64,000 nt of DNA from a virus (IMGVR_UViG_3300029999_000001:3557-67556), one strand, 5' to 3'; counted from the first letter of the stretch, positions 3,236-56,118 are shown. Numbers and translations: made by a program. The notes: generated by a model from the letters alone, not told the origin.

Positions 3236-4768
3236 GTGGCGGTGACGTGGCTTGAGGCTGCCGCGGCAGAGTTCGAGCCCCCGCCAGATGACGTGTTCGA
3301 GAAGCTGGGCTTTACTCCCAACCCTGGCCCGCAGACCCGGTTCCTGTCGCTGCCGGACGAGAACATCGATGTCCTCTACGGCGGCGCGGCCGGTGGGTCG
3401 AAGAGCACGAGCCTTCTCCTGTACGCGCTGCGCGCCTGTGCCCGGTTCCCGGGCCTGCAGGCGTTCTGGTTCCGGCGCTCCTTCCCTGAGCTGCGGCAGT
3501 CGGTGCTGCGGCTGCTGGCCCGCTACCAGCACGCCCGCGCGCTCGGGGCCCGCTGGAACGAAGGCAACTTTGAGCTCCGGTTCTCCAACGGGTCGATCCT
3601 GACGTTCAGCCACGCCAAGAACATGATCGAAGCGTCCGCGTTCCTGTCAGCGGAGATCAATCTCCTGCTGATCGATGAGCGGACCACGATCCCGCCCGGT
3701 GTCGTGGACATGCTGTACAGCCGTGTCCGGTCCGGCGCGGCGGGGGTGCCGTGCCTGGGGATCCGCTCCGCGACGAACCCCGGGAACATCGGCCACGGCC
3801 GGGTCAAGGCCGAGTACGTGAAGGCCACCGAGCACGGCGCACGTGAGGTCATCGACCGGTACAAGCGGCGCCGCCAGTTCATTCAGGCCCGCGTCACGGA
3901 CACGCCCCAGCTGGGCGAGGAGTACCGGCTGAACCTCGCGGGTCTTGATGAGAAGCTCCGCAAGGCCATGGAGGAAGGCGACTGGGAAACCTTCGAAGGC
4001 CAGGTCTTCCCCGAGTTGTCCTGGGACCGGCACGTGGTGCAGCCGATCGAGCTGCCTGCCTCCTGGCGCCGCTATGTGGGTGTGGACTGGGGCTACACGG
4101 CCCCGTGGGCGACCGGATGGTTCGCGCTGGACGAGGATGGCCGGGTCTGGATCTACCGGGAGATTTACGAAACCCAGGTCGGTGAGGCTGATCAGGCGAA
4201 GCGTATCCTCGCGGCCGAGGACGACGGGGAGCAGATCAGCGTCCGCTATGCGGATGACGCGATGTGGGCGACCCGCGGGGACGCGAAGCCGATCGCTGAC
4301 GTGTATGCGGAGAACGGCTGCGCCCTCACCCCCGCAGGGAAGGGCCCCGGGTCGCGGGTGGCCGGCTGGCAGCGTCTGCACAGCTACCTGAAGGACGCGC
4401 CGGCGTGCCCGCATCACCGGGCGCTCGGCTGGGATATGTGCCCGAAACTGCACGTCTTCTCAACCTGCCCGAAGTGGTTCGATGAACTGTCCGAGCTGCC
4501 GCACGCGACCACAGGCGACCCTGAGGACTCCGATCCGAAGGCCCCCGACCACCTCGCGGACCTGACCCGGTACGTGCTGCTGAATCTCGACGGCGGCCCG
4601 GCGTTCCCCATCTTCGGTGACGACAAGCCCAGCCCCATCGCCGAGTTCGCTGAGCCCCTGCAGCCCCTGCACCAGTTCGCGTACCGGCCGATGGCTGATG
4701 AGCCCTCATGGTTCACCGACGACGAGGACACCGCCCGGCGGACCGTAAGGGTCGTGGATCCTGGATGA
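3236..4768 (+). CDS. terL: Terminase large subunit (Terminase_6-like)
   Basis: Walker A-like YGGAAGGSKS, Walker B LLLIDE, ATNPG coupling motif, RNase H-like GVDWGY and C-terminal DHLAD. Confidence 0.95.
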   Translation: MAVTWLEAAAAEFEPPPDDVFEKLGFTPNPGPQTRFLSLPDENIDVLYGGAAGGSKSTSLLLYALRACARFPGLQAFWFRRSFPELRQSVLRLLARYQHARALGARWNEGNFELRFSNGSILTFSHAKNMIEASAFLSAEINLLLIDERTTIPPGVVDMLYSRVRSGAAGVPCLGIRSATNPGNIGHGRVKAEYVKATEHGAREVIDRYKRRRQFIQARVTDTPQLGEEYRLNLAGLDEKLRKAMEEGDWETFEGQVFPELSWDRHVVQPIELPASWRRYVGVDWGYTAPWATGWFALDEDGRVWIYREIYETQVGEADQAKRILAAEDDGEQISVRYADDAMWATRGDAKPIADVYAENGCALTPAGKGPGSRVAGWQRLHSYLKDAPACPHHRALGWDMCPKLHVFSTCPKWFDELSELPHATTGDPEDSDPKAPDHLADLTRYVLLNLDGGPAFPIFGDDKPSPIAEFAEPLQPLHQFAYRPMADEPSWFTDDEDTARRTVRVVDPG

Positions 4769-15297: not shown

Positions 15298-15537
15298 ATG
15301 GCCGCATCCCGTGGCCTGCAGCGGCAGGCGCAAGCCAACGCTGAGGCTGAGCGGCGCACAGAGTTCGTTGCCCGGCTGCTGCTGGCCATGGAAGACCCGG
15401 AAGTCGCTCAGGCTGTCGCGGACGCCCTCCGCGTCGTACAGGCCCGGAAAGCGCGCCGTACTGGCTCGTCCGTCACGTCCGCGGGGGCCGCGAGGGACCT
15501 GAAAGCACAGCGGCTCGCGGCACGAGGGAGGCGCTGA
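15298..15537 (+). CDS. Hypothetical protein
   Basis: ORF track; coupled to the next gene. Confidence 0.55.
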   Translation: MAASRGLQRQAQANAEAERRTEFVARLLLAMEDPEVAQAVADALRVVQARKARRTGSSVTSAGAARDLKAQRLAARGRR

Positions 15538-16016
15538 TGGACGGCGAACGCACGATGACACAGACCGCGCCGTTCCCCAGTGCGCTGGCCTACCTGGTGA
15601 AGTGCTTCCGGTACCGGCCCGGATGGAAATTTCACCTGGCCGACATGGACCGCGGGCAGGGCAGCGCGGGCCTGACGCTCGACATCATCACTCTCGGGTA
15701 CGACAGCTACCACCCGGATCGTGGCGAGAACTACCGGGTCCACCACTACATGATCGTGCCGGCCGCCTCCTACGGCTACGAGTCGTGGCAACGGTGGCTG
15801 TTCGATCAGTGCCTTGAGGTTGAGCGGCACGAGGCGATGGAGTTCTTCGCCGTCAGCGACAGCCCTGGCAGTGAGCATTTCGTGCGGCCGTTCGCGCCGA
15901 ACCATGGCCACGGTGAGAACCCGTACGTCGTTCATGACCTGACTACCGGCGAGGCCAGGCGCACGTCGTTCCGGAATGTGGTCGACGATGACGGCACCGG
16001 GCGCAGCAAGTCATGA
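15537..16016 (+). CDS. Hypothetical phage protein
   Basis: GGGAGG RBS; YRPGW, ERHEAMEFF and PFAPNHG motifs. Confidence 0.65.
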   Translation: MDGERTMTQTAPFPSALAYLVKCFRYRPGWKFHLADMDRGQGSAGLTLDIITLGYDSYHPDRGENYRVHHYMIVPAASYGYESWQRWLFDQCLEVERHEAMEFFAVSDSPGSEHFVRPFAPNHGHGENPYVVHDLTTGEARRTSFRNVVDDDGTGRSKS

Positions 16017-16028
16017 TCGGCAGGTCTG

Positions 16029-17966
16029 ATGGCTAAGACGATCGCGACCGTCTCCGGTGTCGCTCTCGCACCCGGCGTGTCCAGGAACGGCCGGCTCTAC
16101 ACCCGCGAGGCCATCGCCAAAGCGATCGTGCGGGCACAGGGCCGTCTCGCCGATGGCGAAACAGTCGACTTGACCTATCGCGATGAGCCGATGACTCAGC
16201 TGACCCATCACGCGGCCGAGGATGACAGTTCGCGGATCGTCGGGCGGATCACCTCCCTGAGCCTCGGTGAAGACGGGAAGGCCCACTATTCGGCCGCCAT
16301 TGCGGACACGCCGCACGGGCACACCATCGCGAACTTGCTGGACACCAGCGACGGCCAGCCGCCGTTCCTCAAGGGTGTCTCGATCCGCGGTGCATGGCTA
16401 GGCAAGGTCCGCCGCATAAAGGGCCCGGACGGCTCAGCCGTAGAAACCGCCGATGACCTGGAACTCGATGGCCTGGACTACACCCGCAAGCCGGGTGTCC
16501 CTGGCGCGGGCGTTGAGACCTTCGCCTGGGCCAGGGACGGAGCCAATGAGACCACCGAGCGCGTGCTCATCACTGAAAGCGCGGAGGCGTGCGTGACAAC
16601 CCTCACCGAAGAGACCGCGCCGGTAAGCGAGGTCATGCCCGCAGACGTGCGGGAGGCGACGCGGGAACTGCTGCCGCTGGAGCGCCCGCACCTGCTCGCC
16701 AACGGCCTGTGCGAGACCTGCACGGAGATCGGCGAGGCCGCCACGGTCGCCCTGTCGAAACGCAGCGCCGGACTGCAGGGCAAGAGCGGCACCACCTACG
16801 CGGACCCCGGCTACCAGCCGGACAAGAAGCAGCGGTATGAGCTGGACACCAAAGCTCACGTCAGGGCCGCCTGGTCGTTCATCAGCCAGGCGAGCAACGC
16901 CAAGCTGTACACCCCCGCGCAGCTCAAGCGGATCAAGGGCCGGATCAAGGCCGCAGCCGGGAAGTTCGGCATCACGATCGCGACGGAAGGCTGGACGATC
17001 GACCCGGCTCTCCAGCTCACTGAGGCCGTGACCGAGTTCTACGGCGGTGACCCGGAAACCGCGGGCTCCTACACCCTCACCGCCTCCAACGGGCCGACCA
17101 CGGTCACCGTGTGCTCCTACGGCCTTGACCCCGCCGACCTCGCCGTGATCCTGCAGAAGGCCTGCGATGGTGCCGGAAGCGCGCTGGCGTCCCTGGACCC
17201 GGACATGGACGGCGACATTGACGTGCCCGGTGCGGACGCTGAGGACACCGACGGTGACATGAACGGTGACGGGATCGATGACCTCGCCACCCGGCTCGCC
17301 GCCGCATTCAAGGGCGAGTCCGGCGAGGATCCGAAGACGGTTCTCGCCGAGGCCTTCGCCAATCCCCCCGCGGCCGAGGCCGCACCCGCTGAACCCCCGG
17401 CGCCGGACGCCGGACCGCACACAGAAACGGAGGATCCCGCCATGGGCGAGACCACCACGCAGGAGGCGGTCGTGCAGGCCCCGGCCGCCGCACCCGCTGT
17501 CAGTGTCCCCGAGGATCTGGTCGCCAGGTACCAGAAGAAGCTGGCGAAGAAGGAAGCGAAGAAGCGGCTCGCCGCGGCCAAGCCGGCCGAGTCCGCCCCG
17601 GCCGCACCCGTCGCCGAGACCACCACCGAGACCGCCGATGAGCGGATCGCCCGCCTCGTTGAGGAGAAGGTCACCGCGAAGCTCGCGGAGACGGCCGTCA
17701 CCGAGACCGAGGACCAGCGCATCGAGCGGCTCGTCAGCGAACGGCTCGTGGCGGAGAAGCAGGGCGCTGTCGCTGGCGGTGGCGGCCCGGGACGCAAGGG
17801 CCTGGTCACCGAGCACACGGCTGCCCGCACGGGCGGTGAGATCCCCGAGGGCTACCCGATGAAAGACGGCGTGATGAAGCCGATGGAGCAGTGGACCGAG
17901 GATGAGCGCCGCGTCGCCGGCGCGGTCCTGCAGCAGCACGTCCTCGGCGACCGCGCCGTCTACTGA
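16029..17966 (+). CDS. Prohead protease-scaffold fusion with DUF6582-like domain
   Basis: SRNGRLY, His cluster and GVSIRG (compare T4 gp21 GVSSRG); central YADPGYQ.DKKQRYELDT..HVRAAWSFI; acidic coiled-coil C-terminus. Confidence 0.85.
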   Translation: MAKTIATVSGVALAPGVSRNGRLYTREAIAKAIVRAQGRLADGETVDLTYRDEPMTQLTHHAAEDDSSRIVGRITSLSLGEDGKAHYSAAIADTPHGHTIANLLDTSDGQPPFLKGVSIRGAWLGKVRRIKGPDGSAVETADDLELDGLDYTRKPGVPGAGVETFAWARDGANETTERVLITESAEACVTTLTEETAPVSEVMPADVREATRELLPLERPHLLANGLCETCTEIGEAATVALSKRSAGLQGKSGTTYADPGYQPDKKQRYELDTKAHVRAAWSFISQASNAKLYTPAQLKRIKGRIKAAAGKFGITIATEGWTIDPALQLTEAVTEFYGGDPETAGSYTLTASNGPTTVTVCSYGLDPADLAVILQKACDGAGSALASLDPDMDGDIDVPGADAEDTDGDMNGDGIDDLATRLAAAFKGESGEDPKTVLAEAFANPPAAEAAPAEPPAPDAGPHTETEDPAMGETTTQEAVVQAPAAAPAVSVPEDLVARYQKKLAKKEAKKRLAAAKPAESAPAAPVAETTTETADERIARLVEEKVTAKLAETAVTETEDQRIERLVSERLVAEKQGAVAGGGGPGRKGLVTEHTAARTGGEIPEGYPMKDGVMKPMEQWTEDERRVAGAVLQQHVLGDRAVY

Positions 17967-18140
17967 CGGCCCCGGCCCGGTGACGGGCCGCCCCTAGCTG
18001 TACTGACCGCCAGCCTTCCGGGCTGGTGCCGCTGGTGACGGCGGACGGCAGAAATGGTCGGTCGACCCCTGGCCCCGTGCCTGACGCGCGGGGCCTTTCG
18101 CATGCCCAGACCACATTTCCCCAGCCCGGAAGGCACAGCC
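17967..18140 (+). promoter_or_regulatory. Structured leader of the major capsid gene
   Basis: Several hairpins; 18013-18026 is the exact reverse complement of 18121-18134, which contains the GGAAGG RBS. Confidence 0.65.
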
Positions 18141-19523
18141 ATGCCTAGTGAACTGAGGGAGGCGCTGACCGCCGCTGGCGCGTCCGCCCTCATCCCCAAG
18201 ATCATCGACCCGCAGCTCCTGGAGTACATGCGGCGCTTCTCACCCATGGTGCGGGCGATCCCCATGACCAAATGGGACGCGGACGTCTATTACTTCAACC
18301 AGCGCACCACCCTCGCGACCGGCGGGTTCGTGTCCGACGGCGGCGCAGTCCCCGTCTCCACCAGCACGTACGTGCAGAACAACTTCCAGATGAAGCACCT
18401 GCAGGTCGTCGGCGCGGTCACCGGCTACGCGCAGCAGGTCACCCGGCAGGTCATCGACGACCTGAGGCAGACTGAAATCGAGGGGGCCATTCAGGGTCTC
18501 CTGTGGGACATCGAAACCGGCATCGACTGGGGCAACTCCGCGTCCACGATCAACGGCGCCCGCCCCCAGTTCGACGGCTTGGACACCCTGGTGTCCACCT
18601 TCTCCGGGGCGACGCAGAACGCGCAGGACAAGGGCGGCAACACGCTCACCACGGCCATGTTCGATGAGGTCATCGACATGGTGCAGCAGAACGTGGCCAT
18701 GCCGATCCTCGGCTCCAACTGGATGTTCGTCGCATCGTCCACCGCGCAGAGCAAGATCTCGCAGTTGCTGCAGAACCAGCAGCGGTTCAACGACAAGGTG
18801 GAGGTCGCGCCGGGTCTCATGGTCGACTCGTACCGCAACATCCCGATCGTGCTGACGTCGTTCCTGTCGCCGCGGTCCTACCAGATGGGCACCGTGACCC
18901 CCGGCACCTCCAGCGCCGGGACGTGGGGCGGCTCGTACACGCTGAACGCCACCTACCGGTACGTCATCAGCCCGGTCATCGCCCGCCAGGGTGAGATCCT
19001 GCCGGCCGTTGAGGTTTCGCAGGCGGTCACGACCGGCAACGCGCTGACTCTGACGTTCTCGACGCCGAGCGGCTCGGACGGCGGCCAGCCGATCTCCTAC
19101 AAGGTCTACCGGACCGCAGCCGGCGGCGCGGCAGGCTCGGAGACGTTCCTCGGCTACGTCGATGGCACGGTCGGTCTCGCGGCTGACATGGTGACCCCGA
19201 TCCTGACGACCGGGATCGCGGACACCGGCACAGCCCTGGTTCCCTACAACGGGTCCACGGTGCCCGGCACCCTGCCGACGGCGTACTACGGCACCAACAC
19301 CGGCCTGTATCCGCTCGCGGCGGGCCTGGAGAACATCTACCTGATCTCCAGGGACCGGAACTTCGTGATCCGCCCGTACGTGCGTGAGTGCACTCCGCTC
19401 GATGTCTACCCGACCACGAGCAGCCCGGATACACTTCCTTTCGCTCTAGTCGATGACACCTGCCTGGCTGTCCGGGGCCCGAAGTACCTTGGCAGGCTGG
19501 CCCGGGTCGCGACTAGCGTCTGA
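18141..19523 (+). CDS. Major capsid protein with inserted beta-sandwich domain
   Basis: Follows the scaffold; MPSELREAL...IPKIID, QFDGL, YRNIPIV HK97-fold-like pattern; Thr/Gly-rich insertion YRYVI...SYKVYR. Confidence 0.85.
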   Translation: MPSELREALTAAGASALIPKIIDPQLLEYMRRFSPMVRAIPMTKWDADVYYFNQRTTLATGGFVSDGGAVPVSTSTYVQNNFQMKHLQVVGAVTGYAQQVTRQVIDDLRQTEIEGAIQGLLWDIETGIDWGNSASTINGARPQFDGLDTLVSTFSGATQNAQDKGGNTLTTAMFDEVIDMVQQNVAMPILGSNWMFVASSTAQSKISQLLQNQQRFNDKVEVAPGLMVDSYRNIPIVLTSFLSPRSYQMGTVTPGTSSAGTWGGSYTLNATYRYVISPVIARQGEILPAVEVSQAVTTGNALTLTFSTPSGSDGGQPISYKVYRTAAGGAAGSETFLGYVDGTVGLAADMVTPILTTGIADTGTALVPYNGSTVPGTLPTAYYGTNTGLYPLAAGLENIYLISRDRNFVIRPYVRECTPLDVYPTTSSPDTLPFALVDDTCLAVRGPKYLGRLARVATSV

Positions 19524-19544
19524 CCTGCGGTTTTAGCGGTTCCG

Positions 19545-19585
19545 GGTGTCCCTCGCAGTGGCTACTCCGCATTGCGAGGGACACC
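19545..19585. terminator. Long hairpin after the capsid gene
   Basis: GGTGTCCCTCGCAGTG...CATTGCGAGGGACACC; no clear U tract. Confidence 0.55.
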
Positions 19586-19610
19586 TCATTCCCCCTGAAG
19601 GAGGCCGCTG

Positions 19611-19829
19611 ATGTGGCTCAGCAAGCACGAGGTCGGCGGCGGCTGCGCGGTCGGCCCGCATGAGTGGAAGAACGACGGCGACGTGACAGAGGTCCCCGAC
19701 GACCTCGGTAACGACCTGCTGCGCCTCGGCGGGTACCAGGTCGCGGAAGCACCAAAACCAGCCAGCAAGGGGCGCGGCAAGGCGGTCAGCGACGAGGGAG
19801 ACGGCAAGAAGGACGACGTGAGCAGCTAG
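19611..19829 (+). CDS. Small head-associated hypothetical protein
   Basis: GAAGGAGG RBS; position immediately after the capsid gene. Confidence 0.65.
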   Translation: MWLSKHEVGGGCAVGPHEWKNDGDVTEVPDDLGNDLLRLGGYQVAEAPKPASKGRGKAVSDEGDGKKDDVSS

Positions 19830-20143
19830 TCCTGCGGGTAGTCCGGGTGGTCGCTGTAGACGGCGGCATCGGTGGTCAGTACTTCCTCTAGCGCCTCGCG
19901 CTTAGCGAACTCGAACTCGGTTTCATCGATGTGGGTGAAGTTCACCGCGAATGTCTCCCACATGCGGATGTGTGCCCGCTTGGCCTCGACCTCGCGGAGC
20001 ACGCGGGCCGGGTAGCCGCAGTCGCACGGGAACTCAATCCGGCCATGAGTGGGCAGTGATTCGCAGGTCCGGGCATGGATCTCGCACCGGTCGCGATCGT
20101 CCTCGTCTAGCCGGGCAGCAATAAAGCCGGCAAGATCCGTCAT
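19826..20143 (-). CDS. DUF6221-like protein
   Basis: MTDLAGFIAARLDED...PARVLREVEAKR...YSDHPDY pattern. Confidence 0.75.
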   Translation of the reverse strand: MTDLAGFIAARLDEDDRDRCEIHARTCESLPTHGRIEFPCDCGYPARVLREVEAKRAHIRMWETFAVNFTHIDETEFEFAKREALEEVLTTDAAVYSDHPDYPQD

Positions 20144-20274
20144 GCAGCAATCTCCTTCAAGACGGCCTGCACTGTCGACAGGTTACGGCTGACTTCCTTC
20201 GCGATCTTGCGGTGCGACAAGCCGTCCCGGCGTAGGGCGACAATTGCCGCCCGCTCGTCGGCCGCTGTCGTCAC
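20140..20274 (-). CDS. Small HTH protein (44 aa, leaderless)
   Basis: ERAAIVALRRDGLSHRKIAKEVSRNLSTVQAVL; AAGGCT 6 nt before GTG 20274. Confidence 0.7.
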   Translation of the reverse strand: MTTAADERAAIVALRRDGLSHRKIAKEVSRNLSTVQAVLKEIAA

Positions 20275-20309
20275 GCCGCTAGCCTTCCACACCTGGCCGG
20301 GGGTGAGCC

Positions 20310-20975
20310 GTGGCCGACAGTGTGACACCTCTCTGCTCGGCCGCTCAGTTCACCGAAGGCGCGTTCGGTGACCTCGTGAAGGACTACAGCACTCAGGCTC
20401 TCAGCGACCTTCTGGTGGAGGCCACCCGGGAGTGCGAGTCGGAGACCGGCCGCCGCCTGGCTCCGTTCACGGGCCTGACGGAAACACACCGCGCCTCAGC
20501 CGTGGACCCCGACGAGTACACCGACTCAACGAACGTCCCCATGGACATTTACGGGACGCTCGGCCAGTCCTATGCCGCCAGCCTGGCCGTGACCAGCCTG
20601 GTGCGGCATTGCTGGCTGAACGAGTACGCGGTCCGCTACCCGGACCTGTGGCAGTACACCAGCGTCGACCAGCTCACGATCGTCCGGTCGTTCGGCGGGA
20701 CCGAGAACCTGTCATCGTTCCAGTACCAGGGCCCCGAACTCGACTCGGGGCATGTGTGGTTCAACCTGGGCATGTTCATCCCGATCGGCTCCCTGATCCG
20801 GGTCACCTACTCGGGTGGCTACACCATCGCGACCCCGGCGGATCTGGTGCGCGCCAACAAGCTGATGGCGGCGTGGCTGGTGGTGCGGGAACTGGACCCG
20901 GAAGCCACCAACCACGACCCGGACCAGCTGCACACCGACGCGCTGATGATCTTGAGCAACTACGACCGGGCCTGA
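20310..20975 (+). CDS. Head-tail adaptor/connector
   Basis: Position; LLVEATRECESETGRRL and RVTYSGGY...PADLVRA adaptor patterns. Confidence 0.75.
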   Translation: MADSVTPLCSAAQFTEGAFGDLVKDYSTQALSDLLVEATRECESETGRRLAPFTGLTETHRASAVDPDEYTDSTNVPMDIYGTLGQSYAASLAVTSLVRHCWLNEYAVRYPDLWQYTSVDQLTIVRSFGGTENLSSFQYQGPELDSGHVWFNLGMFIPIGSLIRVTYSGGYTIATPADLVRANKLMAAWLVVRELDPEATNHDPDQLHTDALMILSNYDRA

Positions 20976-36402: not shown

Positions 36403-36445
36403 GTTCTGCTGCCAGCACCGGCCGCCCTGGTGCTGGCAGCAGAAC
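36403..36445. repeat. Perfect 17-bp inverted repeat
   Basis: GTTCTGCTGCCAGCACC-9-GGTGCTGGCAGCAGAAC. Confidence 0.85.
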
Positions 36446-36520: not shown

Positions 36521-38059
36521 ATGACATCGCTCAGCTATGTCCAGATCACGGGCACGTTCGAAGATGGCACCGGCAGCCCGCTTACCGGGACGGTGACGTT
36601 CACCCCCTCGGCGACGGTGTACGCGGGCGGGGTGCCGGTCCTGGCCCCCGACGTCCCGATCCGCGCGCTGATCAACGCGGGGCAGCTCGGGAACCTGGCC
36701 GGCGGGACGCTGCAGCTGCTTGCCACCAATAATGCGGGCCTGACGATCGAGGGGCTGACCGGGTTCTGGTTCTGGACTGTGCAGGTCACCCTCGGCGGGC
36801 AAATCCAGGACCCGTGGTCGTTTTTCCTGCCATCATCCCCATCCACGGTTGACCTTTACAGCCTGGCGGACACTGCCGCCAGCGGTGGCGGAACCTCGGT
36901 CAACGGGCTGACCGGTGGCACGATCACCAGCTCCGTGGCGGTGACGGGGTCGCTGGGCACGACCCCGGTGACACTGACGGACGCGCCCACGATCACCGTC
37001 AACGCCGCGCTGTCCAATGTGCAGCGGGTCACGCTCGGCGGGAACCGCACGCTGGCCAGCCCCACGAAGCCCGCGGACGGGCAGCCGCTCACTTTCGAGG
37101 TGATCCAGCCGGCCTCAGGAGGCCCGTACACCCTGTCCTACGGCGCCGCGTATTCGTTCACGGCCAGCACGCCGCAGCCGTCCCTGTCCACTGCGGCCGG
37201 GGACCGGGACCTGATCTCGTTCCTGTACGACGCTGGCACAGCGCTATGGATCTGCACGGGCTACGTCCTGGCGCAAAACGGCGTGCTGGTGATGATCGCG
37301 CAGGGCGGCACCGGGGCGACCACCCAGCAGGGCGCGATCAACGCGCTGACCGGTGTGCAGACCGCCGGGCAGTACCTGCGGTCGAACGGCACGAACGCGG
37401 GGCTGAGCGCGCTCCTGGCGGCTGACCTGCCGTACGACACAACCGCCGCGCACATCCTCGGCGAAGGCACCCAGACCGCGGGCGGCAACGCTCAGCCCGC
37501 CGACTCCGGGCACATCCACCCGGCGAGCAGCATCGTGCCGTCTGATCATGGCCTGCTGGCCTGGTCGATGGACCTTGACTCGGCAGTCAGCGGGACGACG
37601 CTGATCGCGGGAACCGTGTACCTCGTCAAGGTCCCGATCCGGTACGCGCTGACCGCCACATACCTATGGTTCTCTCTCACCGTCGCCGGGGTCGGCACCT
37701 CGACGGGCAGCTACGTCGGCCTGTACTCAAGCGCCGGGTCTCTGCTGACCGGCTCGGCCGACCTGGGTACGGCTATCGCCATCGGTAACCATCAGGTCGC
37801 GCTAACGACGCCACAGGCCCTGACCGCCGGATCGTTCGTGTGGGCCGCGATGGTCACGAACCAGTCGAGCAGCCAGCCCGCGGTACGGTCCCCGTTCAAC
37901 TTCACCAGCCCCGCGTCGCCGAACATCGGCCTGACCGCCGCGACGTACCGGATAGCGGTTCCCGCTGGGGGCACTACTCAGACCGCCCTGCCCGGGTCGT
38001 TCACGCCCTCATCGAATACGAATACCGGCGCCGCGCAGCTCTGGTTCGGGATCTCCTGA
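36521..38059 (+). CDS. Tail-fibre-like protein
   Basis: N- and C-terminal modules shared with 45267..47384; IAQGGTGATT fibre motif. Confidence 0.7.
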   Translation: MTSLSYVQITGTFEDGTGSPLTGTVTFTPSATVYAGGVPVLAPDVPIRALINAGQLGNLAGGTLQLLATNNAGLTIEGLTGFWFWTVQVTLGGQIQDPWSFFLPSSPSTVDLYSLADTAASGGGTSVNGLTGGTITSSVAVTGSLGTTPVTLTDAPTITVNAALSNVQRVTLGGNRTLASPTKPADGQPLTFEVIQPASGGPYTLSYGAAYSFTASTPQPSLSTAAGDRDLISFLYDAGTALWICTGYVLAQNGVLVMIAQGGTGATTQQGAINALTGVQTAGQYLRSNGTNAGLSALLAADLPYDTTAAHILGEGTQTAGGNAQPADSGHIHPASSIVPSDHGLLAWSMDLDSAVSGTTLIAGTVYLVKVPIRYALTATYLWFSLTVAGVGTSTGSYVGLYSSAGSLLTGSADLGTAIAIGNHQVALTTPQALTAGSFVWAAMVTNQSSSQPAVRSPFNFTSPASPNIGLTAATYRIAVPAGGTTQTALPGSFTPSSNTNTGAAQLWFGIS

Positions 38060-43263: not shown

Positions 43264-43300
43264 TGCACCCGGGCCCGTGATCACTGCGGGCCCGGGTGCA
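43264..43300. repeat. Perfect 14-bp inverted repeat
   Basis: TGCACCCGGGCCCG-9-CGGGCCCGGGTGCA. Confidence 0.8.
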
Positions 43301-43346: not shown

Positions 43347-45254
43347 GTGGGCTTCGGGACGCCGTACCTGATCGGCCACAGCACAGCCGGGTCAGGTCAG
43401 ACGCAGACCATCACCGCCGGCACGGCCACCAGCCCCGGCGACGCGATCATCGTCGCGCATTCGAGCTCGTCGACGAGCGGCGCGACGATCAGCAGCATGT
43501 CCGATTCGGCGGGCAACTCCTACAGCCGGATCATCCCCGCCGCGAACACGACCAACGAGTTCGGGGACCTGTGGGCGGCGCTGCCGCAGAACAACGGCGG
43601 CACCACCGCCGCGCTGACCACCAGTAACACGATCACCGTCAACTGGTCGACGTCGACCGGGGAGAAGCTCAGCGTCGCCGCCGGCGTCCCCGGCGTCAAC
43701 GTCACCTCGGCGGTGGACCAGGACCCGGCCCCAGGGCACGGCACCAGCACGTCGCCGACGGTCAGCACCAGCACGCTCGCCCAGTCCACTGAGATGGCGA
43801 TCGGTGTCCTGAACAACCCGGACACCGATGCGCCGAGCAGTGTCAACCTGACCCAGCTGACACAGCAGCAGTCCGCCACCAGCCCTTATGTGACGATCTG
43901 CTACGAGCAGACCAGCTCCACCACTGCGGTGACGTTCGGCGGTACGCTTCCCGCGAGCCTGAACTGGTGCGCGATGCTGGTCACACTGCTGCCCGCCGCG
44001 CCTGCCGTGACAGCGGCGGCACCTGCGCAGGTGCCGCCCCCGCGGCCGCGGGGCTCGAGCCGGGCGGTCATCCGCGGTCTCACTGTCGCCCCGCTCATCG
44101 CCGCTGCGCTGACCGGCGGCCACGCCTATCAGCGGGCCAGCCCGCCGCATCGCCTGGTGTGGCACGGCACGACCGTGACGACGGTCAACGTGAGCGGGCC
44201 GTCGGGGACGGTCCAGCCCCGCGCCACGATCCCTGTCCCGCGCCGGGCCGCGGCACGGGCGGTGTGGGCGCGGGAGACCGGGCCGGGGAACGCGCACGGC
44301 CCGTCAGGCATCCCGCCGCTCCCGCATCCTCAGCCACGCCGGCAGCCGGCGCGGGCAGTATGGCGGGGGACCGTCACCCGGGGCAGTAACGCCACCACGA
44401 TCGGCACGCCTGCACTGGTGTTCCCGCGGCAGCAGCCGCGGCGGCAGCCATCCCGGGCGGTGTGGCACGGCACCATCACCGCGGGCAGTAACGCTGCGGC
44501 GATCGGCACGCCTGCGGTGATACGGCCACCTGCCCCGCTGCGGCGGCAGCCGGCGCGGGCCCTGTGGCGGGGGATGACCGCTGCCGTACAGCACGGGGTT
44601 CCCGGCACCGGGAAGCTGCCGGCGGCCCGGCGCATCCCGGGCCGGGCGGTCTGGCGGGGGACGCTCACCCCCGGCACGGTCGCACCGGGCCCCGCACCGC
44701 GGCAGCGGCCACCCATCCCGCGCCGCACCCCCGTACGGGCTGTGTGGACCGGTATCCGTACGGCCACGGTCAACGCCCTGCCGGTTGCTGTCCCGCCACC
44801 AGCCCAGCGGCCCGCCATCCCGCGCCGCACCACTGCGCGGGCTGTGTGGGCGGGGACGATCACGCCGGGCACGCTGCGGGCGCCCGGGATAACCACGATC
44901 ACCGTCACCGGCACCTGCCTGGACTACCGGGGTGCCCCACTGCCAGGGCCGGTGGTGTTCGACCCGGGCGGGGTGATCATCGACGCGGCCGGCCGGGTGA
45001 TCCTGGGAGGCCCGGTCACCGTGCCCCTCTCCACGGCGGGAACGTTTTCGGTGGTCCTGCCATGCACCGACAACGCTGGTCTCAGCCCGGCCGGATGGCA
45101 GTACACGGTCAGCATCACGCTCACCGTCCCAGCAGCGGCCTGGACCCCGGCGACGCTGGTCCAGGACCTGCCGGTTCCCGTGCCGCCCGCCTCGTTCCGG
45201 ACCGGGCTGCCGTCCGCCCTCGGCCCGGCCACCGACCTCAGCGCACTCGTCTAA
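43347..45254 (+). CDS. Virion-like protein: beta domain, RRxPARAVWxG repeats, shared adaptor-like module
   Basis: Ser/Thr-rich N-domain; about nine Arg/Pro/Trp repeats; C-terminus homologous to the N-termini of 36521 and 45267. Confidence 0.75.
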   Translation: MGFGTPYLIGHSTAGSGQTQTITAGTATSPGDAIIVAHSSSSTSGATISSMSDSAGNSYSRIIPAANTTNEFGDLWAALPQNNGGTTAALTTSNTITVNWSTSTGEKLSVAAGVPGVNVTSAVDQDPAPGHGTSTSPTVSTSTLAQSTEMAIGVLNNPDTDAPSSVNLTQLTQQQSATSPYVTICYEQTSSTTAVTFGGTLPASLNWCAMLVTLLPAAPAVTAAAPAQVPPPRPRGSSRAVIRGLTVAPLIAAALTGGHAYQRASPPHRLVWHGTTVTTVNVSGPSGTVQPRATIPVPRRAAARAVWARETGPGNAHGPSGIPPLPHPQPRRQPARAVWRGTVTRGSNATTIGTPALVFPRQQPRRQPSRAVWHGTITAGSNAAAIGTPAVIRPPAPLRRQPARALWRGMTAAVQHGVPGTGKLPAARRIPGRAVWRGTLTPGTVAPGPAPRQRPPIPRRTPVRAVWTGIRTATVNALPVAVPPPAQRPAIPRRTTARAVWAGTITPGTLRAPGITTITVTGTCLDYRGAPLPGPVVFDPGGVIIDAAGRVILGGPVTVPLSTAGTFSVVLPCTDNAGLSPAGWQYTVSITLTVPAAAWTPATLVQDLPVPVPPASFRTGLPSALGPATDLSALV

Positions 45255-55816: not shown

Positions 55817-55917
55817 TGGTGGCGGGGAGACAGGGACCAGCCTTCCGGGCCGCTGGCGCCCGCCGGCACTGGCCGCTTACGCGGGGGCCGGGCAATCCCA
55901 TCCCTGAACGTCTCCCC
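55817..55917 (-). ncRNA. Candidate structured RNA 2 ending in GCCACCA
   Basis: GGGGAGAC/GTCTCCCC plus AGGGA/TCCCT closing stems; GTAA and GGAA (GNRA) loops on the minus strand. Confidence 0.55.
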
Positions 55918-56041: not shown

Positions 56042-56044
56042 ACG

Positions 56045-56118
56045 TGGCGGAGACGTGATTTGAACACGCGACCTCTGAGTTATGAGCCCAGCGAGCTACC
56101 GAACTGCTCCACTCCGCT
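56045..56118 (-). tRNA. tRNA-Met(CAU), initiator (fMet)-type
   Basis: AGCGGAG-TG-GAGC-AGTTCGGTA-GCTC-G-CTGGG-CTCATAA-CTCAG-AGGTC-GCGTG-TTCAAAT-CACGT-CTCCGCC-A; 1:72 mismatch; CCA not encoded. Confidence 0.93.

Follow-up and report, generated by a model that had tools for sequence, protein, structure and literature searches.

A conserved junction RNA upstream of a phage major capsid gene, with an alternative predicted fold that hides the capsid Shine-Dalgarno sequence

We report that the leader of the major capsid gene in a phage from peat metagenomes contains a conserved junction RNA of about 55 nt, whose helices covary among relatives and which is linked exclusively to this one gene. In the phage analysed here, one arm of the junction is also one half of a perfect 14-nt inverted repeat whose other half carries the capsid Shine-Dalgarno (SD) sequence, so that the junction and an SD-burying helix are mutually exclusive folds, and complementarity between junction and SD is enriched across the family. 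The junction RNA probably controls the amount of capsid protein made. Our preferred reading, which we put forward tentatively, is a factor-dependent translational switch on the capsid mRNA, in which the junction would act as sensor and the anti-SD arm would deliver the output.

Results

The window, the whole stretch of 64,000 nt that was analysed, comes from a peat-metagenome virus record of 100,323 bp in IMG/VR. The open reading frame at 18141 encodes the major capsid protein, with matches to Pfam SU10_MCP (E 3e-9) and to the PHROG 752 major head protein (E 2.5e-32), and the N-terminus of its product, MPSELREALTAAG, is common to all relatives (Table 1). In the product of the gene before it, residues 7-164 match the PHROG 207 head maturation protease (E 1e-5), and the product also matches Pfam DUF6582; the stop codon of this gene lies 38 nt from the junction. 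No DNA similarity of the window to cultured phages was found, and at the protein level the only matches to cultured phages were to Leptospira phages LE3 and LE4, at 30% identity. No promoter-like site was found in 15500-20500. The heptamer TACTGAC occurs in the window at 17961 and again at 18001. In many relatives (e.g. L087, L102, L105, L165) a CCTGA(A/T)C stands 6-12 nt upstream of the junction, and together with the CCTGACC that opens P1 it makes up a short direct repeat in their leaders. Many relatives also have, before the junction, hairpins like the small one that follows the upstream stop codon here.

Table 1. Features of the capsid leader and its flanking genes, in coordinates of the window
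Feature	Position	Strand	Description	Basis
Upstream gene	16029..17966	+	head maturation protease with a long C-terminal part (probably scaffold)	PHROG 207, DUF6582
Small GC hairpin	17973..17990	+	just past the upstream stop; 7 pairs, GTGA loop	fold of 17967-18160
Junction RNA	18005..18059	+	conserved, ~55 nt; P1, P2, P3 and the one-pair 'P4'	model R1, covariation, column conservation
P1	18005-18008 with 18056-18059	+	GACC/GGUC	
J1/2	18009	+	lone G between P1 and P2	
P2	18010-18015 with 18021-18026	+	loop TTCCG	
Anti-SD arm	18013..18026	+	last three bases of the P2 5' strand, P2 loop and P2 3' strand	
J2/3	18027	+	lone U between P2 and P3	
P3	18028-18031 with 18046-18049	+	14-nt insertion in the window	family form GCC(N)/(N)GGC
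'P4'	18050 with 18055	+	A-U pair closing GAAA (GNRA), directly 5' of the P1 3' strand	
Terminator-type GC hairpin and tail	18071..18109	+	hairpin 18071-18095, -21.7 kcal/mol; tail CTTTCGCATGCCCAG, 18095-18109	
SD arm	18121..18134	+	CCAGCC then CGGAAGGC; SD GGAAGG, 18128-18133	
Major capsid protein gene	18141..19523	+	460 aa	Pfam, PHROG, relatives' N-termini

The two halves of the repeat, GCCTTCCGGGCTGG (18013-18026) and CCAGCCCGGAAGGC (18121-18134), are 100% complementary over 14 nt across a gap of 94 nt, and the second contains the SD GGAAGG (18128-18133), 7 nt ahead of the capsid ATG. A sequence-only reading of this DNA had described the segments as exact reverse complements, the downstream one bearing the capsid SD, and on both points it was borne out (14/14 nt). 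Three loci of the window have a perfect inverted repeat of at least 14 nt with a gap of at most 150 nt, while dinucleotide shuffles (n=200) hold a mean of 0.235 such repeats per 64 kb and 16.5% of the shuffles have any; the leader repeat is thus far from chance expectation, which for this leader of ~150 nt is of the order of 5e-4. The other two loci, 36403-36445 and 43264-43300, are simple long hairpins. The same reading had proposed that each arm can instead form a local hairpin, and this holds for the upstream arm, where CCAGCC-TTCCG-GGCTGG (18010-18026) is real and conserved; the hairpin on the SD side, GCC-CGGAA-GGC, has only three pairs, although its loop is exactly complementary to TTCCG. 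The upstream arm is in fact part of the conserved element of ~55 nt, which that reading had missed.

Folding of 17967-18160 gave a minimum free energy (MFE) structure and a centroid that both use the 14-bp helix (-100.5 kcal/mol, z -3.3). The probability that the SD hexamer is paired with the upstream segment is 1.00 in the window fold, to be read against a median SD pairing of 0.67 over 30 crude gene starts, since in silico pairing of the SD is common in this GC-rich genome. The helix occupies the P2 loop and the P2 3' strand. With a junction arm thus doubling as the anti-SD, only one of the two structures can form at a time, which upholds in silico the earlier suggestion of two alternative folds. 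The SD arm opens with the same CCAGCC as the P2 5' strand, which gives the arrangement the geometry of toehold-mediated strand exchange, the complementary loops being the toehold; the loop-loop kissing proposed in the sequence-only reading would fit this geometry. In the nearest-neighbour model, constraining the fold of the window to contain the junction costs 14.3 kcal/mol relative to the fold with the 14-bp helix, and among 82 leaders the junction is never part of the MFE structure, at a median cost of 10.9 kcal/mol. Such a predicted cost is typical of RNAs that need tertiary contacts, a bound partner or co-transcriptional trapping. An RNA thermometer of the fourU or ROSE kind, which would need a weak pairing of the SD with a short U-rich tract, was rejected: the window helix has 14 perfect pairs, 11 of them G-C, lies within a fold of -76.8 kcal/mol and would not melt at physiological temperatures.

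The junction of the window scores 51 bits (E 3e-9) against the covariance model R1. Over its 15 pairs, 95.3% of cells are paired in 81 distinct sequences, and seven of the 15 pairs vary on both sides; the observed covariation score was reached by none of 500 shuffles, and slid registers collapse. A covarying, structured sensor domain, the mark of a riboswitch or factor-responsive leader, is therefore present here over these 15 pairs. At position 2 of P1, A-U (71) alternates with G-C (9); P2, which in the family begins with an invariant CC/GG base and continues into a variable stem and loop, shows A-U/G-C, G-C/C-G/A-U/U-A and further exchanges at positions 3-6; and the P4 pair across the GNRA turn is A-U in 63 sequences and G-C in 11. 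All four helices are supported by covariation in relatives. The turn itself is nearly invariant (G 80/81, R 80/81, A 81/81), and 20 of the 48 junction positions are at least 95% identical. G-U pairs within the junction occur on the + strand only, which means that the constraint acts on the coding-strand RNA.

The P3 insertion of the window (18032-18045) is able to form its own GTGA-capped stem. In this region and at 17979-17986, GGTGACGG is present twice (17979 and 18034), and CGGCGGA/CGGCAGA look like a small tandem duplication; a rearranged junction may have left this remnant. GGCUGG-U-GCC presumably resembles the 3' end of 16S rRNA, a likeness too short for testing. A coding extension or leader peptide starting from the conserved AUG of GNRAUGG was rejected because the reading frames into the capsid gene are not conserved (they split 32, 22 and 18, with 11 leaders having no AUG). 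A pairing of AUGG with a CCAU 3' of the hairpin can be drawn in many leaders, but a U-to-C change is offset by A-to-G across the GNRA turn and not downstream, and this pairing was likewise set aside.

The family was built from a starting set of 13 capsid relatives from viral contigs, in whose leaders a common block was seen. A DNA pattern of this block occurred in 55 viral contigs and 12 actinomycete genomes, each time immediately 5' of the capsid gene of the family. To avoid ascertainment bias, 99 further loci were picked by the capsid protein profile alone and then searched with R1, which found the junction in 95 of the 97 capsid-homolog loci having upstream sequence; in every case it is on the coding strand, 26-98 nt before the capsid start. 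These loci come from Streptomyces, Amycolatopsis, Kitasatospora and peat metagenomes. The two loci that lack the junction have the most distant capsids (48-53% identity): one (L099:1270-1500; 48%) keeps a TTTTTTCATGC-tailed terminator and a GAGGAG SD, its junction being a degenerate remnant, and the other (L097; 53%) has neither junction nor terminator. At L147:393-512, two complete junctions stand in tandem, 16 nt apart, 5' of the capsid gene.

Searched across host genomes that hold the prophage or plasmid, R1 gave one match in each of four actinomycetes and two in a Catenulispora genome (G004). It gave no match in 150 other Streptomyces genomes, a result that reads as 'not found' and not as 'absent', as about 39 candidates per genome were scored. 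With a relaxed DNA pattern, 14 of the 16 loci that gained a score with the model were capsid-linked, the two weakest not, and the other 50 gave no score; the matches to this pattern were mostly chance ones. Weak R1 matches in the window at 44573-44630 (- strand) and 37819-37858 (+ strand) lie within long open reading frames and were taken as chance. Among the carriers are two plasmids, the 92.5-kb circular pAmyja1 of Amycolatopsis japonica and the 97.9-kb pCMC57_01 of Kitasatospora sp. CMC57, which points to temperate phage-plasmids. In pAmyja1 (L200:3468-4862; NZ_CP008954.1) the RefSeq capsid coding sequence begins at an upstream in-frame ATG, just past the T tract of the hairpin (a place inferred from the similar leaders L178 and L180); alignment with relatives moves the true start from 3468 to 3501, 11 codons further on, where a normal SD precedes it. 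The annotation shows no RNA feature in this leader.

Searches of 17800-18300 with Rfam 15 (4227 models, E up to 10) found no family match, the best overlapping one being nhaA-II on the opposite strand with 18.3 bits against a gathering score of 70.4. Five representative relatives gave no Rfam match at E up to 1, ARAGORN found no tRNA or tmRNA gene in 17800-18300, and our literature searches returned no description of this RNA.

The terminator-like hairpin that the sequence-only reading had placed between the two arms is present as a GC hairpin followed by TTT, and it is a recurrent module in relatives: 59 of 82 distinct leaders have, between junction and SD, a GC hairpin (-16 to -27 kcal/mol) followed by a U-rich tail, and in some relatives the U tract is 4-6 U long. 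The hairpin of the window went uncalled in a strict terminator scan because just 3 T follow it. About 20 leaders lack a hairpin 3' of the junction, often having one 5' of it, where it also stands in short leaders, and some leaders have both. The same 15-nt tail recurs after another long GC hairpin of this phage (48790-48847), which marks the leader hairpin as a generic terminator-type module, independent of the junction. The two occurrences suggest a shared terminator-tail motif in this phage, and related tails, UUCGCCAU.CCC and UUUUUUCAUGCCCCC, follow leader hairpins of relatives.

The candidate switch needs the junction and the capsid start on one RNA, and a terminator-type hairpin between them counts against it. 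Two peat metatranscriptome runs contain exact fragments of this phage, in fragmentary contigs in which RNA ends are not visible. One 170-nt contig from an RNA library corresponds to 18050-18219, across the hairpin, SD and start codon, and is weakly compatible with read-through RNA, DNA carry-over being possible. Terminator/antiterminator riboswitch logic was rejected, since the leaders, when read, held no consistent segment competing with either hairpin arm.

The hairpin raises another reading, in which the junction would be a processive antitermination site similar to lambda nut or HK022 put, letting polymerase pass the hairpin into the capsid and tail genes, with the 14-bp pairing secondary. 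The strength of the hairpin and its U-rich tail in so many leaders, and the return of the window tail after a second terminator-like hairpin, fit this reading. Two hairpins joined by a single U, together with a GNRA turn, recall put and boxB, which are likewise small hairpin RNAs acting in cis before a terminator, with a GNRA-type turn and hairpins one base apart. However, the capsid-leader element lies in the middle of the head operon, away from a promoter, no boxA-like element was identified, and among the roughly 20 leaders without a downstream hairpin several have it upstream, beyond the reach of the junction. The complementarity between junction and SD, which has no counterpart in nut or put, would be left unexplained, and we regard antitermination as unlikely.

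We assign a similarly small chance to a second reading, in which junction and hairpin together govern the processing or stability of the capsid mRNA (a 5' structure protecting it from RNase J/E, or a defined RNase cleavage site) and set its half-life with no switching. Stable structures immediately 5' of the most highly expressed late gene would suit such a role, and the variable position of the hairpin, which stands 5' of the junction, 3' of it or in both places, is suggestive of a stabiliser or terminator module in its own right. The extent of conservation in the junction, which includes helix bases and the GNRA turn, nevertheless exceeds what generic protection needs, and the lineage-specific complementarity to the SD would again have no explanation.

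As to that complementarity, the exact 14-bp helix is found only in this phage, whereas pairing potential between junction and SD recurs in relatives. Most relatives use P3 for it; the window, L105 and L126 use P2. In the nearest clade (capsid 70-74% identical), P3 has the form GCC-UUCC-GGC and matches the SD region CCGGAAGG perfectly over 8-9 nt (L102, L106, L109; also the more distant L124 and L169). L105 has the TTCC tract both in P2 (10 nt) and in P3, and L126 has CCUUUCG in both, against CGAAAGG; L123 sets UUCU against AGAA, other extended matches occur in L117, L125 and L163, and the Streptomyces group has CUCGGCA (P3 loop and 3' strand) against UGCCGAG immediately 5' of the SD. The loop types fit the SD variant of their own leader (TTCC with CCGGAAGG, TTTC with CCGAAAGG, TTCT with CCAGAAGG). 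In the window UUCC is gone from P3 through the insertion and is present in the P2 loop instead.

The enrichment can be put in numbers, although shared ancestry among the representatives makes the p-values optimistic. The mean probability of pairing between the SD hexamer and the junction is 0.48, compared with 0.20 when the junction is shuffled (40 representatives, Wilcoxon 1.5e-6), and junction/SD duplexes from the same leader average -21.9 kcal/mol against -19.3 for swapped ones (30 representatives; permutation p 5e-5, 0/20,000). The own duplex is the stronger in 22 of the 30, and Watson-Crick runs of at least 7 occur in 25% of own pairs but 8% of swapped pairs. A fixed-register column test was negative (pairing 0.695, against 0.687 in permuted leaders, p 0.21); as these columns pair no better than permuted ones, there is no formal covariation for the long-range helix. 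Some predicted ensembles contain no junction-SD pairing (e.g. L104, L113, L127, L131, L138, L139), and in L104 and L131 the SD is predicted to pair with nearby linker sequence. Comparison of the leaders thus supports junction-SD pairing in several lineages, the window included, and leaves it not proven family-wide.

These data bear directly on the reading that the junction is functional and the 14-bp complementarity of the window an accident, for instance a by-product of two similar GC-rich stems. In its favour, relatives lack the exact pairing, the fixed-register test came out negative, and leaders in these GC-rich genomes often share exact matches of 11-16 nt with unrelated genome regions: the window leader has three matches of at least 14 nt elsewhere in its own genome, leaders of relatives are similar, and 13-16-nt matches to unrelated parts were common in all five genomes examined. 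On the other hand, the chance expectation given above is very low for a 150-nt leader, the match covers exactly the SD, and a P2-loop anti-SD fitting its own SD variant appears in three lineages independently, which leaves accident improbable in our judgment. One of the matches repeats all 14 nt of CCAGCCTTCCGGGC, from the P2 5' strand through the loop into the beginning of the 3' strand; it stands at 55837-55850 in noncoding DNA, next to a tRNA-Met (56044-56118, minus strand), and its flanks (55833-55860) resemble the 5' half of the junction (GACC..CTGG.GCC). An RNA acting in trans from this site was rejected, as the match is no better than chance and the region lacks conservation in the four relatives compared. 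In relative G160 a 15-mer match was dismissed as apparently ordinary coding sequence, by appearance only.

Discussion

Based on these folds we can outline how the proposed translational switch might work. The junction, transcribed first, would fold into P1-P4 and leave the SD free. Once made, the SD segment could invade P2, with the loops TTCCG and CGGAA as a toehold and CCAGCC displacing the identical P2 5' strand, and formation of the 14-bp helix would block ribosome binding. We infer such switching in vivo and its direction, with the folded junction as the ON state, as well as the existence and identity of a factor that would recognise the invariant junction core, pick the fold and so set the timing and amount of capsid protein. 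The candidate factor would most likely be a phage or host protein and less likely a small ligand. A more specific version, in which the GNRA core is recognised by a small signal or by an assembly-related protein (capsid protein or the free scaffold-protease) so that the SD is freed or hidden, seems to us possible but doubtful; if true, this new phage-specific circuit would couple capsid translation to head assembly or to the state of the host, and the movement of the anti-SD tract between P2 and P3 among lineages would be its evolutionary trace.

Highly improbable, in our estimation, is that the junction is the aptamer of a small-molecule riboswitch with SD occlusion as the expression platform: its compactness, invariant core, variable peripheral loops and covarying helices, its instability on its own in silico and the tandem pair in L147 all recall one, but it occurs 5' of only one phage structural gene and never of host genes in the genomes searched, its joining strands of 1, 1 and 6 nt leave little room for a pocket, and no Rfam aptamer is similar.

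Leader RNAs whose alternative folds conceal the SD are a known kind of system. Work from van Duin on the MS2 A-protein leader reportedly describes a cloverleaf closed by long-distance pairing of the SD with an upstream complement. The capsid leader resembles it in having a multi-helix junction 5' of a phage structural gene and an SD paired about 100 nt upstream, with an outcome thought to be set by the folding kinetics of the nascent RNA. MS2, however, is an ssRNA phage and the protein concerned a low-copy one, whereas here the phages are dsDNA phages and the protein is the most abundant of the virion; moreover, the anti-SD is here the junction arm itself, and there is no sequence relationship. 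SD-hiding riboswitches such as SAM-II and preQ1-II also have a conserved sensor domain of which a part occludes the SD, but the capsid-leader element is limited to one phage gene and matches none of the 4227 Rfam models.

Other phage leaders share single features with this one. In lambda cIII, and in the N leader with its RNase III site, translation is set by the fold of the leader or by removal of an SD helix, but these are early regulator genes and their structures differ from the capsid-leader junction. T4 gene 32, regA and the P22 scaffolding protein likewise use post-transcriptional feedback via leader RNA, although the junction architecture is unlike those operators and a binding protein is here only hypothetical. 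Compared with Rfam and the papers searched, the RNA family, its exclusive link to the major capsid gene and the lineage-wise relocation of the anti-SD have not been described. Very few cis-regulatory RNAs have been described in dsDNA-phage structural operons; 5' of a major capsid gene none is known, to judge from these tools.

In summary, the gene for the most abundant virion protein in a widespread group of temperate actinomycete phages of ~70-100 kb and phage-plasmids is preceded by a compact RNA that covaries clearly, keeps an invariant core and exists in more than 100 distinct natural variants. Experiments are feasible, since the family is present in cultured strains (Amycolatopsis japonica with pAmyja1, Kitasatospora sp. 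CMC57 and several Streptomyces prophages), and the junction offers a testable handle on the tuning of late proteins and a candidate for the discovery of ligand- or protein-binding RNAs. Should it prove to be a switch, it might also find use as a regulatory part in high-GC hosts.
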